Virus record (IMG/VR): IMGVR_UViG_2778261458_000005
Coordinates: 1 to 41,650 of that record
DNA length: 41,650 nucleotides
Strand: one strand, 5' to 3'
Source: a virus
Lineage: Duplodnaviria > Heunggongvirae > Uroviricota > Caudoviricetes
The translations under genes were made by a program, and so were the position numbers. The notes under the pieces were generated by a model. It did not search any database. It saw only the letters and a program-made list of their open reading frames with translations, and had not been told where the DNA came from. This document shows positions 4,128-40,642 of this stretch, piece by piece; within the stretch, counting starts at the first letter, position 1, and every line of letters starts with the position of its first letter.

Positions 4128-4610
4128 TTATTTGATAAGAAGTGAAGGTTTCCCAACTTTGAGTTGAGCGCCGGGGATATTTATTCCTGCTTTTAGTTGG
4201 TGTTTGATTGCCAGTTTGTCGGCTTTAATTGTCGTTTCAAACTCAACGTATTCAGGAGGAAGGGCGCTTGAGTCGATTATTTCTACAATTTCTGACGGTT
4301 TGCGAATTGTTACCTGGTGAATACCTGCTCGAATCTTTTTCTTGCCAACCATTTCAAGCGATGACGCTATATATGCCATAATGCTGTCAATCTTATTTTG
4401 AATTACTGCGGCTCTCTCATTTAGTGACTTTGCCTCTTCCTTGAGGCGTTCAGCATAACCAGATTCATTTTTAATAATGGCGAGAAGTTGCTCTATTTTA
4501 TCGGTAAATTCTCCTTCCATGCCTTCTATTGTGTCAGCAATCATCTCTGGCTCTAAATCTGAATCCATCAATTTTGCGTATTCATTGGCAATTTCATACA
4601 GTTTGCTCAC
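4128..4610 (-). CDS. Recombination-associated coiled-coil protein (Sipho_Gp157-like, tentative)
   Basis: Start taken at GTG 4610 with GGAGG RBS; immediately downstream of RecT as is typical for this family; family assignment from memory only. Confidence 0.5.
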   Translation of the reverse strand: MSKLYEIANEYAKLMDSDLEPEMIADTIEGMEGEFTDKIEQLLAIIKNESGYAERLKEEAKSLNERAAVIQNKIDSIMAYIASSLEMVGKKKIRAGIHQVTIRKPSEIVEIIDSSALPPEYVEFETTIKADKLAIKHQLKAGINIPGAQLKVGKPSLLIK

Positions 4611-5505
4611 TGGCAACCTCCAGTTTCGCTTTGCATTCTATGTAAATGGCTTGTACTTTCTGCTGCAATTTCATTCCAGATGTCAGGCGATATGCTTCTG
4701 CAAAATTTCGCTTCAAATCATCCATGTTTTCAGCCTGAGCCATTTCATCACAAAGAAGTTGTGCTTTTTCCATAATTTCCTGCTGTCGTTTCCGTTCATC
4801 TTCGCGGATATCTTCCTCTGATTTGTGCGGCATAACTGGTTCAGTCCACACACCTTCTTCTTCGTTTAGTACGTGAATAGCACTATCAAGACGTGATGCC
4901 TTAGGCCAATACTTGCTTGCACGCTTTACGACCGTCTTTCGCGCCATCTCATTCCAGTGATTTACCCATGGTCCTTTATCGCTGAATGCTGCCTTGCTTG
5001 TTTTCCTTACAGCCTCAATTTCAGCCAGACTCATCTCTTCCGTTAGATAATCACCTGCTGGCGTCTTAACTGTGCAGTAAACGCCAACAATATCACCACG
5101 ATCACCGAAGGCGTTGTATTTATGGGTTGGTGCTTTATCAAGCCCGTTTGACTCATAGGTATCGTTAGCATGAACAAGTTTTGCCTGACCCCATGAGATA
5201 ACACCAGACTCCATTGCAATATGGAGCAATCCCATATAACTGATATCAAGGTACACCATGCCGTCGCGCGGAACCAGATAAGCCAGTTTGCTAGCCGGGT
5301 TTAAGGTGATACCGATCGCCGCAACATTGATGATGGCGTTCTGTGCGCTGGTTGGATTTGCCAGTGCTGTTTTAGCCAGGTAATCATTTTTCTGGAAATA
5401 CTGAATTGCAAACTGGCTTTCCTTAGCCCATGTCACCGTCTGTTCAGTCAATGCTCCGCAGAATAACTGCTCTTGCTGTTTAACGAATTCAACGATATTG
5501 CTCAT
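4594..5505 (-). CDS. recT: RecT-family single-strand annealing recombinase
   Basis: 303 aa; conserved RecT core (NPTSAQNAIINVAAIGITLNP...); GGAGAAG RBS. Confidence 0.85.
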   Translation of the reverse strand: MSNIVEFVKQQEQLFCGALTEQTVTWAKESQFAIQYFQKNDYLAKTALANPTSAQNAIINVAAIGITLNPASKLAYLVPRDGMVYLDISYMGLLHIAMESGVISWGQAKLVHANDTYESNGLDKAPTHKYNAFGDRGDIVGVYCTVKTPAGDYLTEEMSLAEIEAVRKTSKAAFSDKGPWVNHWNEMARKTVVKRASKYWPKASRLDSAIHVLNEEEGVWTEPVMPHKSEEDIREDERKRQQEIMEKAQLLCDEMAQAENMDDLKRNFAEAYRLTSGMKLQQKVQAIYIECKAKLEVASEQTV

Positions 5506-5894: not shown

Positions 5895-6047
5895 TCATTT
5901 CCTGCGATACCATGGAAGGTTGATAGCTGATTTCATCGCTTTATTTGCTTCAAGCCACATTTTTGAATCACCAATAAATCTGGCTATTACTGCTTTGTTC
6001 TGTGCTGCACGAAGCATCTGGTGATTGATGGCTATTTCATTGCGCAT
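5895..6047 (-). CDS. Hypothetical small protein (about 50 aa)
   Basis: ATG with GGAGG RBS; below ORF-track cutoff. Confidence 0.3.
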   Translation of the reverse strand: MRNEIAINHQMLRAAQNKAVIARFIGDSKMWLEANKAMKSAINLPWYRRK

Positions 6048-6232
6048 AACGCCTCCAGTTGTTTCTTTGCTGCTCTGATTAATTGTTTAACTCGGCGTGA
6101 TAATTCAGATTCGTGCGGGTAGAAAGCGGACATGACGCCGCTACCCGCGAGCTGAAAGTGCATCATGGGTAACTCCTTATATTTGATTGCATAACGAAAA
6201 ACGCCTCGAGTGAAGCGTTATTGGTATGCATA

Positions 6233-6257
6233 TAAAAAGGCCCTCACACTGGAGGGC
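6233..6257 (-). terminator. Rho-independent terminator candidate (minus strand)
   Basis: Hairpin GCCCTC-ACACTG-GAGGGC followed by a T5 run on the minus strand. Confidence 0.5.
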
Positions 6258-6319
6258 AAAGAAGATTTCCAATAATCAGAACAAGTCGGCTCCTGTTTAG
6301 TTACGAGCGACATTGCTCC

Positions 6320-6347
6320 GTGTATTCACTCGTTGGAATGAATACAC
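6320..6347. other. 9-bp perfect inverted repeat GTGTATTCA-N10-TGAATACAC
   Basis: Direct read; lies in a stretch bounded by two minus-strand terminators that has no convincing ORF. Confidence 0.5.
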
Positions 6348-6375
6348 AGTGCAGTGTTTATTCTGTTGTTAGTGC

Positions 6376-6402
6376 CAAAAATAAAGGCCGACTATGCGGC
6401 CT
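6376..6402 (-). terminator. Rho-independent terminator (minus strand)
   Basis: Hairpin AGGCCG-ACTATG-CGGCCT followed by TTTATTTTT on the minus strand, directly after the membrane-protein stop. Confidence 0.55.
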
Positions 6403-6406
6403 GAAA

Positions 6407-6856
6407 TTACTTAACCAATGATGCTGCATATTCGATAAGGTAAAGTTTTGGGGCCAGCCAAATTTTTAACCAAGTCATATTGGTTACTACACCAATAATA
6501 AAAACCCCCCACAGAGTCAAAACTCCAACCAATGGCATGATAAGAAGGTTAATATCTCCTTTGCTATCCCAAACCATTGTCGGCCTGTATTTGGGCTTTC
6601 CTTTCTCCCATGAGTATCCTTCATCACCGATTTTACCTGTCTCAACTCTTTGGCACTGCTTCTTCATAAACCAGAAAACCAGTGGGATTGTTAGAATGGC
6701 TATTAATGTTTTAATCAGACTGTCAACCATATTCCATAGCAGCAACTGATGAACAACATCAGGAATCTGCGCTTGGCTGAATGAAACAGCCGCGTCTATT
6801 CCATTGCTGGCTTTTTGCAGTAGTTCTACGAGAATCTTGTTTGCTTGTTCTTCCAT
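6407..6856 (-). CDS. Small integral membrane protein (SieB-like by position and topology; inference)
   Basis: 149 aa with 2-3 hydrophobic helices; sits where lambda/P22 carry sieB. Confidence 0.55.
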   Translation of the reverse strand: MEEQANKILVELLQKASNGIDAAVSFSQAQIPDVVHQLLLWNMVDSLIKTLIAILTIPLVFWFMKKQCQRVETGKIGDEGYSWEKGKPKYRPTMVWDSKGDINLLIMPLVGVLTLWGVFIIGVVTNMTWLKIWLAPKLYLIEYAASLVK

Positions 6857-6913: not shown

Positions 6914-7192
6914 TTACCATTTCTTTTTGGGGTTTCGTTGATGGGCGTGATTGACAACTTTAAACATTGCATCTCCACCAGAATTATTGTCAATCTCTGT
7001 CTTTTCGTGAGCTACTGCTAATTCAGCTGCTTTTTCACCCCTCACGGCAGCCAATCCTCCTTTTTCCAAAATCTCTGCCTTTCTCTCCTCCCGGCTCTTG
7101 TTTTCCTTCTCTGCTCTTTCTGCCTTCCTGGCCTCTCTGCGGCGGTTCCTGCTATTATCTCTCGCTGGCTTGATTGTTATGCTAGGCTTCAT
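6914..7192 (-). CDS. Hypothetical highly basic protein (92 aa)
   Basis: ATG with GAGG RBS; Arg/Lys/Glu-rich; immediately downstream of N. Confidence 0.5.
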   Translation of the reverse strand: MKPSITIKPARDNSRNRRREARKAERAEKENKSREERKAEILEKGGLAAVRGEKAAELAVAHEKTEIDNNSGGDAMFKVVNHAHQRNPKKKW

Positions 7193-7194
7193 TT

Positions 7195-7503
7195 TTACCT
7201 CGCTGTAATTAGTTTTTGCCTTCTGTAACCAGCAGCATACAGTGCAACTTCAGGCAAACAAACGCTTCCGCTATTCGCATCTGTATTTGATTTGCTAATG
7301 ATGCCGAGTGATATTGCTTTTTCAGAAATGCTTAAACGCTTTCTCGGGGCTTCCTGAACAGGTTCCTCACTGTCTGTGCCGAAGATCGAATCGATGATGT
7401 TGCATATAGCATCACGCTCGATAGCCAGCTTTCTGCGCCGCTCATGACGGCGAGTTTTGGCATTTCCTGCAAATGTTGATTTTCCGTACACGATTACCGT
7501 CAT
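7195..7503 (-). CDS. N: Antiterminator N (P22 gene 24 type)
   Basis: Arginine-rich motif GNAKTRRHERRRKLAIER matches the P22 N boxB-binding peptide; start at internal ATG 7503 with GAGGAAA RBS. Confidence 0.85.
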   Translation of the reverse strand: MTVIVYGKSTFAGNAKTRRHERRRKLAIERDAICNIIDSIFGTDSEEPVQEAPRKRLSISEKAISLGIISKSNTDANSGSVCLPEVALYAAGYRRQKLITAR

Positions 7504-7622
7504 GATATTTTCCTCATGTGAAATGGCTTTGGTGGTGATGCGCCAGGTGCTGATCTTCTGGTTGCTGTCGTTGCAGCTGCAATTCACATCACCGCCAAAC
7601 CCATCTCGTTTGGTATCTGTTT

Positions 7623-7856: not shown

Positions 7857-8516
7857 TTAACTAAATGTCTCTTCAGGCCACTGGCTGGCGATAACTTTCC
7901 CTACTACGGAACAGCTATCATTGCATGGGATCATTGGATATTGCGGGTTTAGTGGTTGTAGGAACACCTGACCGCTATCCCTGATCAGTTTCTTGAAGGT
8001 AAACTCGTCACCGCCAAGTCTGGCTATGCAGAAATCTCCTGGCTCAACAGCCTGCTCAGGGTCAACGAGAATTAACATTCCGTCAGGAAAGCTTGGCTTG
8101 GATCCTGTTGGTGCGGTCATGGAATTACCTTCAACTTCAAGCCAAAACGCACAATCACTGGCTTTTTTGGTTGTGCTGACCCATCTCTCCGCATCACCTT
8201 TGGTAAAGGTTCTAAGCTCAGGCGAGAACATCCCGGCCTGAACATGAGAAAAAACAGGGTACTCATATTGTTTTTTAACGGGGGCAGATGAGTATTCGCC
8301 AGCAGGTGAAAATGTACCGTCGTGGTTGAATGAGACGTTATCAATACCAAGGTATTTAAACACCACACCAATCTCGTCAAGAGATGGATGACGAGATCCG
8401 CGCAACCAGTGACCAATTCCACCCTGCGTCATACCAAGCTCTTCAGCTAACTTCTCTTGAGTTATGCCGAGCTCTTTCATTCTGGATCTAGCCAGTTCAT
8501 ACCATTTCATTTTCAT
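7857..8516 (-). CDS. Prophage repressor (cI/C2 analogue): N-terminal HTH plus C-terminal S24 LexA-like peptidase domain
   Basis: 219 aa; [18 protein letters not shown]; C-terminal S24 domain (GNSM...KKL with Ser/Lys dyad context); ATG with AAGGA RBS; divergent from cro. Confidence 0.9.
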
Positions 8517-15202: not shown

Positions 15203-15277
15203 GGGTCAGTCGTATAAAGGTCATTACGGAAGGCTGTTAACCTTCTTATCGTGGTTCGAGTCCACGCTGTCCCGCCA
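15203..15277 (+). tRNA. Phage tRNA, atypical; anticodon GUU (Asn) if the fold is correct
   Basis: Manual fold: T-arm CGTGG-TTCGAGT-CCACG, anticodon stem GAAGG/CCTTC with loop CTGTTAA, 3' GCCA; one acceptor mismatch and a compressed D-arm. Confidence 0.45.
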
Positions 15278-15282
15278 AATAT

Positions 15283-15358
15283 GCTGGTTTAGCTCCAATG
15301 GTAGAGCGGTCGCCTTGTAAGCGAATGGGTAGCGGTTCAAGTCCGTTAACCAGCACCA
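15283..15358 (+). tRNA. Phage tRNA, anticodon UGU (Thr) by manual fold
   Basis: Perfect acceptor stem GCTGGTT/AACCAGC, D-arm GCTC-CAATGGTA-GAGC, anticodon loop CTTGTAA, T-arm AGCGG-TTCAAGT-CCGTT, 3' ACCA. Confidence 0.7.
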
Positions 15359-15600
15359 TAACTGAGCCGTAGCCACTGGCTATCCTGAATTCATCAGTGA
15401 TAGTTACGCTGCGGCCTTCTACACATGACCTTCGTGAAAGCGGGTGGCATGAGGTTGCGATAACAACCTCATGCCGTTTTGCCCGTGCATATCGGTCACG
15501 AACAAATCTGATTACTAAACACAGTAGCCTGGATTTGTTCTATCAGTAATCGACCTTATTCCTAATTAAATAGAGCAAATCCCCTTATTGGGGGTAAGAC

Positions 15601-33453: not shown

Positions 33454-33633
33454 TTACTTTTTGCTGTCTGGAGTTCGCTTATCCAATACCCAGCCATGAC
33501 CTGGCTTTGTTGTTGGTGGAAGCCTTTCGTTGTCCTTGACGGTGGCAAAATTGTCTTTCTTACCGCCGCGTGGGCCAACTTCTTGGTATATTCCGCCGTT
33601 TTTTCCTGTGTTTTCACCTGGTTTTTTCGCCAT
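33454..33633 (-). CDS. Small Gly/Lys-rich protein (YjzC-like, tentative)
   Basis: 59 aa from ATG 33633 with GAGG RBS; pattern NGGIYQEVGPRGG...LPPTTKPGHGW. Confidence 0.45.
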   Translation of the reverse strand: MAKKPGENTGKNGGIYQEVGPRGGKKDNFATVKDNERLPPTTKPGHGWVLDKRTPDSKK

Positions 33634-33732: not shown

Positions 33733-33984
33733 TCAGGTGGTTTTTTTGTACAAATCCTTCAGCGTATCAAACACCATCTTCTTAACAAGATCTGACTGCT
33801 CATCAGCGAGTCGTTCTGCATCGTCACGATATCCAGTCACAGGCGATGGTTTTGATAGAGCATCTTGGACGATCTGTAACAACTCGGAGTTCATTGATCT
33901 CCCATTCGCCTCCGCCCTGAATTTTAATTTCTCCCTTACTTCCATAGGCATACGGAAGTTAAAGTGCGGATCATCTCTAGCCAT
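33733..33984 (-). CDS. mnt: Mnt repressor (immI)
   Basis: 83 aa, essentially identical to P22 Mnt as I recall it (MARDDPHFNFRMPMEVREKLKFRAEANGRSMNSELLQIV...). Confidence 0.9.
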   Translation of the reverse strand: MARDDPHFNFRMPMEVREKLKFRAEANGRSMNSELLQIVQDALSKPSPVTGYRDDAERLADEQSDLVKKMVFDTLKDLYKKTT

Positions 33985-34006
33985 GCCATCACTCCAAGTT
34001 AGTATA

Positions 34007-34059
34007 TTGACATGATAGAAGCACTCTACTATATTCTCAATAGGTCCACCGTGGACCTA
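34007..34059 (+). promoter_or_regulatory. Pant promoter with Oarc and Omnt operators
   Basis: -35 TTGACA (34007..34012), -10 TATATT (34030..34035); Oarc ATGATAGAAGCACTCTACTAT (34012..34032); Omnt palindrome TAGGTCCACCGTGGACCTA (34041..34059). Confidence 0.85.
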
Positions 34060-34074
34060 TATTGTGAGGTGAAC

Positions 34075-34236
34075 ATGAAAGGAATGAGCAAAATGCCGCA
34101 GTTCAATTTGCGGTGGCCTAAAGAAGTATTGGATTTGGTACGCAAGGTGGCGGAAGAGAATGGTCGGTCTGTTAACTCTGAGATTTATCAGAGAGTAATG
34201 GACAGCTTTAAGAAGGAAGGGCGCATTGGCGCGTAA
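34075..34236 (+). CDS. arc: Arc repressor (immI)
   Basis: 53 aa from internal ATG; [53 protein letters not shown] matches P22 Arc. Confidence 0.9.
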
Positions 34237-34304
34237 AGTTGAAGCCCCAGCTGCGGGAACAGTCAGGGCTTCTGTTGTCAGTAAATTCGTGGAGAAAAAC
34301 CAAC

Positions 34305-39015: not shown

Positions 39016-39072
39016 TGATCAATAAATCCAAGTGATTTATTGATAGGATTACATGGTCTACATATTACAAAA

Positions 39073-40567: not shown

Positions 40568-40642
40568 TGGTGTCCCCTGCAGGAATCGAACCTGCAATTA
40601 GCCCTTAGGAGGGGCTCGTTATATCCATTTAACTAAGAGGAC
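40568..40642 (-). tRNA. argW: tRNA-Arg, anticodon CCU
   Basis: Minus strand folds as a 75-nt tRNA (GTCCTCTTAGTTAAATGG...GGTTCGATTCCTGCAGGGGACACCA), anticodon loop CCTCCTAAG; matches E. coli argW as I recall it. Confidence 0.9.

Follow-up and report, generated by a model that had tools for sequence, protein, structure and literature searches.

The ral-ea10 region of phage lambda encodes LPR1, an sRNA that Silverman et al. renamed PreS (bioRxiv 10.1101/2024.10.31.621285; later Mol Cell 2025;85:4678). PreS lies between ea10 and ral, has its 3' end at the terminator tL2a, and is detected as a species of ~88 nt together with a stronger species of ~68 nt; the preprint names the 88-nt form the full-length RNA and gives no mechanism for its 5' end (bioRxiv 10.1101/2024.10.31.621285). 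The RNA is enriched on Hfq and is Hfq dependent, it is made in the lytic cycle only (absent in lysogens, detectable within 10 min or less after induction), and its phenotype requires recA (bioRxiv 10.1101/2024.10.31.621285). PreS activates dnaN translation by opening structure in the region of the ribosome-binding site (RBS), and it represses alaS, with compensatory mutants confirming both interactions (bioRxiv 10.1101/2024.10.31.621285). Deletion of PreS or of its seed reduces spontaneous phage production 2- to 4-fold and yields fewer plaques, and seed deletion leaves less phage DNA after induction (bioRxiv 10.1101/2024.10.31.621285).

Other RNAs were considered as possible reports of the same molecule and rejected: the EHEC prophage sRNAs of Tree et al. 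2014 map to the PR' moron site, and HnrS (PLoS Pathog 2026) is a distinct RNA, as are the Pas sRNAs (bioRxiv 2026).

A first-pass annotation of the phage DNA analyzed here had singled out a short stretch between two terminators, containing a perfect inverted repeat, as either a structured minus-strand RNA or the binding site of a dimeric regulator. We report that this stretch is very probably the PreS (LPR1) module of a P22-like lambdoid phage of E. coli, processed from the pL transcript and acting on dnaN.

RESULTS

Sequence identity with lambda PreS

The window (the whole stretch of DNA that was analyzed, 41,650 nucleotides) is a P22-like lambdoid phage of E. coli, with Dewey, Louie, and IME10 as its nearest phages. 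Its leftward early (pL) operon runs on the minus strand and houses the PreS stretch on the transcribed strand. The minus-strand order is N, a Nun-like ORF, a membrane ORF, PreS, cIII, kil, and recT, and the features of the region are as follows.

7857-8516, minus strand: cI-type repressor
7195-7587, minus strand: N antiterminator
6914-7192, minus strand: Nun-like ORF
6407..6856, minus strand: predicted membrane protein, 149 aa, function unknown (phrog_3054, unknown function, E = 7e-64)
6375..6402, minus strand: upstream intrinsic terminator after the membrane-protein gene, stem 6402-6385 (terminator scan)
6314..6353, minus strand: RNA hairpin built on the inverted repeat (folds, covariation across classes)
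6231..6318, minus strand: PreS (LPR1) sRNA, ~88-nt form, placed by the lambda cloning/T7 primer ends (Table S5 of bioRxiv 10.1101/2024.10.31.621285)
6257..6284, minus strand: target-pairing seed of PreS, nt 35-62, placed by the primers for M1, M2, and the seed deletion
6234..6257, minus strand: intrinsic terminator equivalent to lambda tL2a, stem 6257-6240, tail C-UUUUU at 6239-6234 (scan plus homology to lambda 33923-33949)
6195..6219, minus strand: second downstream terminator-like hairpin, before the cIII RBS, stem 6219-6200 (terminator scan)
6032..6166, minus strand: cIII, 44 aa, next gene downstream of PreS (Pfam PF08134, E = 2e-30)
5895-6047, minus strand: kil
4594-5505, minus strand: recT

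The 149-aa membrane ORF at 6407..6856 had no Pfam match. An Rfam search of the whole window placed the P22 sar RNA at 34237-34304; besides sar RNA, the Rfam matches elsewhere in the window were three tRNAs only. Between 5900 and 7000, Rfam 15 gave no match at gathering score, the best subthreshold E values (≥0.27) being chance-like, and a PreS family is not represented in it.

Positions 6230-6395 of the window are 96% identical to lambda 33923-34087, the ral-ea10 intergenic region, and positions 6190-6229 are 100% identical to lambda 33483-33522, just upstream of cIII. Lambda LPR1, as delimited by its authors' cloning and in vitro transcription primers, reads GAGCAATGTCGCTCGTAACT...CCTCCAGTGTGAGGGCGATTTTTTA (bioRxiv 10.1101/2024.10.31.621285). 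In the window the corresponding 5' end is G6318 and the 3' end falls within the U-tract at 6238-6234; position 6231 is taken as the end of the RNA in that it is the 3' limit of the lambda construct. Nucleotides 1-79 are identical between the two phages, with five differences in nt 80-91, and identity to the lambda records is 96.6% over 88 nt. For membership in LPR1 the authors require at least 92% identity and no more than three gaps (bioRxiv 10.1101/2024.10.31.621285), and the window copy lies within both limits. The Northern probe P843 of the preprint matches 6258-6291 at 100%. The window holds one copy of PreS, on the transcribed strand of the pL operon and upstream of cIII, with ea10 and ral themselves absent.

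All differences from lambda PreS are confined to the sequence past the terminator stem, which reads C-UUUUU-AUAU in the window versus GA-UUUUUU-AU in lambda. The 5-U tail is common among natural copies; the lambda tail has 6 U. As a separate observation, short U-tails can weaken Hfq binding, and the tail in the window is one U short of lambda's. The terminator itself (6257-6240) has the stem GCCCTC-CAGTGT-GAGGGC followed by CTTTTTATAT, in RNA GCCCUC-CAGUGU-GAGGGC and then C-UUUUU, as in tL2a. It would supply the 3' end of PreS and likely also its Hfq-binding module.

Judged by sequence, then, the short structured minus-strand RNA postulated in the first-pass annotation corresponds to a homolog of lambda PreS/LPR1, ~88 nt long and predicted to end at the terminator at 6257-6240. 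The stretch would thus be an already described element, PreS, and not a new one, and the window copy can be expected to behave as lambda PreS does in expression, Hfq binding, and target regulation. Structure prediction, which had been suggested as a check, also favors an RNA: the 221-nt stretch folds with z = -5.6 relative to shuffled sequences, and a 14-bp stem forms on the repeat.

Distribution and neighboring terminators

Of 5426 complete E. coli genomes, 2252 matched a 301-nt query covering the locus, as did 372 phage records, lambda among them; identity was mostly 95-99%. With the 88-nt sRNA as the query, matches were found in 385 phage records and in 2233 of the 5426 genomes (~41%), at up to 6 copies. 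A scan of GTDB genomes returned Escherichia, one Shimwellia, and otherwise unrelated taxa (Pseudoxanthomonas, Enterococcus, Shewanella, Pseudomonas, and others). The matches in unrelated taxa, several of them on contigs of ~48.4-48.5 kb or on small contigs of ~1x coverage, were excluded as lambda DNA contamination. Across hundreds of phages the sequence of the stretch is 95-100% conserved, and the ~60 nt upstream of the tL2a stem are nearly invariant between flanks that are both mosaic.

Two minus-strand terminators do bracket the stretch as originally described, at 6402-6385 and 6257-6240. The terminator scan detected 12 terminator-like sites between 4500 and 8500, compared with 4.3 ± 2.9 in shuffled sequences. 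The upstream terminator has the stem AGGCCG-CATAGT-CGGCCT followed by TTATTTTTGG. It had been read as one boundary of the RNA, an assignment that comparison with relatives overturns: lambda lacks it, having merely a GGCC half-site after the ral stop codon, as do most other relatives, in which more than 20 different contexts occur upstream. Homology to the window extends to 6402 or beyond in only ~25 of 133 loci. The upstream terminator belongs to the neighboring gene and lies outside the conserved sRNA module, incidental to the mosaic. Because lambda and most relatives lack it, the terminator-bounded geometry that first drew attention to the stretch is itself incidental.

Downstream, the region of the hairpin at 6219-6200, a third one that the first-pass annotation had not listed, matches lambda 33483-33522 at 40 of 40 positions, and this hairpin is probably lambda tL2b. 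In lambda, ea10 lies between tL2a and the cIII-proximal hairpin; in the window ea10 is missing and the two terminators are joined at 6229/6230.

Seed, host targets, and diverged alleles

The seed at PreS nt 35-62 is identical to that of lambda and contains both sites mutated in the preprint, M1 (CUG, 6279-6277) and M2 (GAA, 6269-6267). The M1 positions were found to be complementary to dnaN, and the M2 positions to the alaS RBS region. Against the E. coli K-12 dnaN leader (-48 to -16), a duplex calculation restricted to the seed gave -28.3 kcal/mol, compared with -10.9 ± 2.6 kcal/mol for shuffled targets, with perfect blocks of 11 and 12 nt at PreS nt 36-46 and 51-62. The duplex with alaS (-16..-1) was predicted at -8.5 kcal/mol. 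The fold predicted for the 88-nt form has nt 1-6 base-paired to nt 35-40.

A permissive search with the 88-nt query recovered ~60 records of Salmonella P22-like phages with ~84% identity over the first 53 nt. On alignment, this Salmonella-type allele conserves the first ~24 nt, and its central region is different and longer and its terminator is different. The allele was present in more than 120 IMG/VR loci, and a third allele was present in one locus. In all three alleles the central region is colinear with the 3' end of dnaA on its antisense strand. Predicted duplexes of each central region with the E. coli dnaN leader, compared with shuffled targets, were as follows.

Lambda-type (window) allele: -31.9 kcal/mol (shuffled mean -11.8, SD ~3)
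Salmonella-type allele: -32.5 kcal/mol (shuffled mean -14.4, SD ~3)
Third-type allele: -37.2 kcal/mol (shuffled mean -15.6, SD ~3)

Because the diverged alleles all stay complementary to the dnaN leader, these comparisons argue that, throughout the PreS family, dnaN is the selected target.

These data bear on two other ways of reading the stretch. Both downstream hairpins are lambda terminator sites, and several phage records annotate only a "terminator" here; the locus could accordingly be a mere terminator cluster with spacer (lambda tL2), its RNA fragments having no function. Such a reading is very unlikely, given the near-invariance of the 60 nt before the terminator stem in hundreds of phages despite mosaic flanks, the retention by three diverged alleles of long complementarity to the same host leader, and the Hfq binding, validated targets, and mutant phenotypes documented in lambda (bioRxiv 10.1101/2024.10.31.621285).

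It is also conceivable that PreS is a dual-function RNA that encodes a small protein of 31 aa, from an ORF (6313-6218) that starts at PreS nt 6; the transcribed strand of the stretch has no other ORF with an ATG start. Its ATG is preceded by GGAG, and its first 21 codons are invariant in lambda-type copies. However, the synonymous positions are invariant as well, which points to constraint at the RNA level, and the spacing from GGAG to ATG is only 2 nt. The frame passes through the terminator stem, its variation is concentrated in the terminator loop, and its C terminus varies with the downstream junction, giving more than 50 peptide variants in sequence or length. Moreover, the Salmonella-type allele, the third allele, and one lambda-type locus have ATA in place of the ATG, and the peptide has no PHROG match. 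We therefore consider a protein product extremely improbable, in agreement with the earlier judgment that the stretch holds no convincing ORF.

The inverted repeat folds as an RNA hairpin

The 9-bp perfect inverted repeat with its N10 spacer was present as initially reported, GTGTATTCA-N10-TGAATACAC at 6320-6328 and 6339-6347. Perfect 9-bp repeats (spacer 3-20) gave 12 matches at 7 distinct sites in the window, compared with 1.95 ± 1.07 in shuffled sequence, and taken by itself such a repeat is weak evidence. In minus-strand RNA the paired region lengthens to a stem of 14 bp, with 6349-6336 pairing with 6331-6318 around the loop CAAC (6335-6332), and a lower stem of 3 bp, UGC/GCA, pairs 6353-6351 with 6316-6314 across an A/A mismatch. 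The PreS +1 nucleotide (G6318) belongs to the final pair of the 14-bp stem; the UGC upstream pairs with nt +3 to +5. The inverted repeat is thus not in mature PreS, as had been supposed, and instead sits directly 5' of it.

To ask how the hairpin behaves in relatives, 120 IMG/VR loci were retrieved by the seed sequence and the extent of homology to the window was mapped for each. Downstream homology mostly ends at 6230-6234, right past the terminator tail, and is followed by ea10, other genes, or the cIII terminator. Upstream homology ends at 6352, 6362, 6389, 6395, or 6402, before many different genes. In five loci it ends within 2 nt of the PreS +1 (at 6318 in four and at 6316 in one), and these five carry a different perfect hairpin, TATAGCAGATT-TACG-AGTCTGCTATG, at the same position. 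A second scan was enriched for loci with a replaced hairpin, and 212 loci with full flanks were classified. Among these, the window hairpin (class A) occurred behind at least 22 upstream contexts and class B behind two. Three further classes came with the diverged Salmonella P22-like allele, for a total of at least five (A to E); these unrelated classes occur in different combinations with at least two alleles of the sRNA. Conservation of the repeat in related phages, which had been suggested as a check, is therefore true of its pairing throughout and of its sequence only in part: class A recurs in many phages, and elsewhere the sequence is swapped with the pairing kept.

RNAalifold analysis of 14 representative sequences gave an 11-bp consensus stem with compensatory changes in 9 of 11 pairs. 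Cells of the consensus stem were paired in 98.7% of cases, versus 61% when partners were shuffled and 26-47% when partners were slid, and the covariation score was 0.915 versus 0.19, a value of 0.915 being reached in 0 of 500 shuffles; the 14 rows represent ~5 independent replacements, and these covariation statistics overstate the number of events. Across the wider set, a hairpin was found within 36 nt before the sRNA 5' motif in 353 of 353 loci, with a ΔG of -10 kcal/mol or lower in 98% of them, compared with 7% of 37-mers drawn at random from those loci. One stem pair is broken in a few single loci. The class A helix measures 14 + 3 bp, compared with 11 + 3 bp for classes B to E, and in every class 12-13 nt separate the loop from the PreS +1, which is on the 3' side.

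Together, these data show that the inverted repeat is an RNA structure under selection. The first-pass annotation had raised the alternative that a dimeric regulator binds the repeat as a DNA operator lying between terminators of the early left operon, and two perfect 9-bp arms set 10 bp apart are indeed a geometry common among operator sites. Yet in classes B to E the half-sites give way to unrelated sequences that are still complementary: relatives carry at least four unrelated, perfectly pairing replacements of the repeat, and 9 of 11 pairs are changed on both sides. The class A repeat is, in addition, common to lambda, 434, Stx, HK97-like, and P22-like phages, which differ in their immunity and late regions. 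Because of G·U pairs, which lengthen the stem on the transcribed strand only, the hairpin is stronger there than on the complement (class A, -20.2 kcal/mol on the minus strand versus -16.3 on the plus strand; class B, -16.1 versus -12.4), and after this extension the loop is just 4 nt. Since unrelated replacements keep the pairing and G·U pairs favor the transcribed strand, the repeat is best understood as RNA structure, and we find an operator scarcely credible.

Origin of the 5' end

A promoter scan detected no sigma-70-like site upstream of PreS, and the search of the minus strand at 6350..6380 recommended in the first-pass annotation likewise came back empty. The 5' end at G6318, at the foot of the hairpin (6353-6314), is most likely cut from the operon transcript rather than born at a promoter, because no promoter-like site lies upstream, no conserved -10 element is possible, and the lambda RNA shows lytic-only timing and a need for recA. 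A conserved promoter is precluded because the sequence before +1 differs wholly between the hairpin classes.

We nevertheless weighed the possibility that PreS is an independent gene, transcribed as a primary transcript from its own promoter in or just upstream of the hairpin (~6325-6380). The sequence TTGGCA at 6378-6373 matches the -35 consensus at five of six positions, many operon-borne Hfq sRNAs have internal promoters, and the preprint terms the 88-nt form full length with the origin of its 5' end unstated; from sequence, a weak unconventional promoter inside the hairpin is conceivable. However, the scan gave no sigma-70-like site at ~6325-6380, there is no acceptable -10 element 16-18 nt past TTGGCA, and the 13 nt before +1 are wholly different among classes A to E, with more than 20 contexts upstream of the hairpin. 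In lambda, too, absence of the RNA in lysogens, its appearance within 10 min of induction, and its recA dependence fit pL-driven transcription. An autonomous promoter is therefore unlikely.

Under the favored reading, release from the pL transcript, the hairpin probably marks the 5' processing boundary of PreS. It may direct or delimit the processing, or it may afterwards protect the 3' end of the upstream mRNA. The position of +1 relative to the loop would suit RNase III, for which the helix (11-14 bp plus 2-3 bp) is short; an RNase E cut adjoining the helix is equally possible. With either cut, the upstream mRNA would keep the hairpin as its 3' cap. A literature search for processing sites in the pL operon found nothing.

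DISCUSSION

The element itself is already known, and the present analysis adds modest new comparative detail, namely the covarying 5' hairpin and the allele series. Neither was found in the accessible literature, which included the PreS report in its preprint version (bioRxiv 10.1101/2024.10.31.621285).

We propose the following sequence of events. Lytic induction would start leftward transcription of the minus-strand pL operon, the sRNA 3' end would form at the tL2a terminator (6257-6234), and the 5' end would be made by cleavage at the foot of the hairpin. Trimming from ~88 to ~68 nt, as in lambda, would place the 5' end near 6298 and free part of the seed, with loss of the pairing between nt 1-6 and nt 35-40; such release could explain the dominance of the short form on Hfq in lambda. 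With Hfq, the single-stranded seed (nt 35-62, 6284-6257) would then pair with host mRNAs, opening the structure that hides the dnaN RBS, so that more beta-clamp is made and phage DNA replication is helped, and repressing alaS. A separate point concerns antitermination: N-modified RNA polymerase should pass tL2a, which poses a question for 3'-end formation during antiterminated transcription.

A broader reading, which we offer tentatively and with slightly more doubt than conviction, is that an obligatory, structure-selected hairpin sets the 5' end of an sRNA family of at least three alleles whose parts reassort while the host target stays fixed. The hairpin would guide a nuclease (RNase III near the base or a helix-positioned RNase E) or cap the upstream mRNA. 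The centers of the alleles would be colinear antisense copies of the last ~45 nt of dnaA, which form the dnaN leader, and the hairpin, sRNA body, and terminator would be separately reassorting mosaic units.

A reading of raw sequence thus picked out a genuine phage regulatory RNA that had gone unnoticed in lambda for decades and was described in 2024-25. By homology, a P22-like E. coli prophage would carry the same device for raising host beta-clamp synthesis in lytic growth. Two points are new and testable: the sRNA is invariably preceded by a covarying hairpin, which probably fixes the 5' end of the RNA, and the alleles of Salmonella phages keep their complementarity to dnaN.

Several known systems resemble the locus. 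Its hairpins at 6257-6240 and 6219-6200 are those of the lambda tL2 cluster, which was reportedly first described by Luk and Szybalski in 1983. In the classic view these were termination sites only, whereas the RNA released at tL2a is now a regulator. RNase III processing hairpins are known from phage early transcripts, such as the T7 R1.1-type sites and the site in the lambda N leader. The PreS hairpin is similar in being a stable hairpin between early-operon cistrons, with the downstream 5' end on the 3' side near the base; its stem of 11-14 bp plus 2-3 bp is shorter than the typical ~20 bp.

DicF, from the Qin prophage, and CpxQ are Hfq sRNAs cut from operon or 3'UTR transcripts, and DicF acts on a host cell cycle function. 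PreS would share with them release from a longer mRNA, a terminator-type or processed end, and action through Hfq on host mRNAs. It has no sequence similarity to them, and PreS activates its main target by opening the RBS, whereas most such sRNAs repress.

The closest relative remains lambda PreS/LPR1 itself. The window phage differs in being a P22-like podovirus, in lacking ea10 so that tL2a abuts the pre-cIII terminator, in having as its upstream neighbor a membrane-protein gene with its own terminator instead of ral, and in a U-tail one U shorter; the window also lacks LPR2, which in lambda has been suggested to act as a sponge of PreS. The two loci are alike in sequence, in their pL position upstream of cIII, in the 3' end at tL2a, in the seed, and in the flanking hairpin.

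PreS-like alleles in Salmonella phages and seed matches in unrelated taxa

Salmonella P22-like phages carry a diverged allele of the PreS small RNA, approximately 103 nt in length, at the following retrieved loci:

L250 (phage ST104), 901-1010: diverged PreS-like allele
L251 (SEN22): diverged PreS-like allele
L252 (ST-29): diverged PreS-like allele
L253-L332 and others (IMG/VR): diverged PreS-like allele, further carriers

A third PreS-like allele was found once. PreS and the diverged alleles have their first ~24 nt in common, and the seeds and terminators of the latter are unlike those of PreS. Despite these seed differences, the E. coli dnaN leader showed strong complementarity to all alleles, and at the 3' end of dnaA each allele follows the antisense strand colinearly.

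Exact matches to the PreS seed were also detected in GTDB genome contigs of unrelated taxa (loci L125-L147), among them Pseudoxanthomonas, Enterococcus, Shewanella, Pseudomonas, and Bradyrhizobium. Of these contigs, several were either ∼48.4 to 48.5 kb long or small with ∼1x coverage; the matches look like phage lambda control-DNA contamination in public assemblies.

Other RNAs, repeats, and neighboring genes

With published probe sequences as queries, the lambda RNAs LPR2 and 6S had no match in the whole window. LPR2 has been floated as a possible PreS sponge (Silverman et al., bioRxiv 10.1101/2024.10.31.621285); PreS is therefore present here without that possible sponge. Other RNA genes, and perfect inverted repeats (arms of at least 9 bp, spacer of 3 to 20), were as follows:

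15203-15358, plus strand: two tandem tRNA genes carried by the phage, for Asn(GTT) and Thr(TGT)
15446-15480: inverted repeat with 12-bp arms, immediately past the tRNA pair
34237-34304, minus strand: P22 sar antisense RNA (Rfam RF00262, 84.8 bits), which marks an immI/antirepressor region
39018-39045: AT-rich inverted repeat, 11 bp
40568-40642, minus strand: tRNA-Arg(CCT), close to the window end, which may mark the prophage attachment site

In the leftward early operon, a Nun-like ORF lies directly downstream of the N gene, in one operon:

7195-7587, minus strand: P22-type N antiterminator gene
6914-7192, minus strand: Nun-like transcription termination factor ORF (phrog_5632, E = 1.5e-29)

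The ea10 junction

Downstream of PreS, the ssb-like lambda gene ea10 is missing from the window at 6229/6230. Because ea10 or other small genes occupy the equivalent junction in relatives, this position behaves as a moron insertion point. In lambda, the PreS terminator tL2a and the pre-cIII terminator flank ea10, whereas in the window the two terminators are joined directly.
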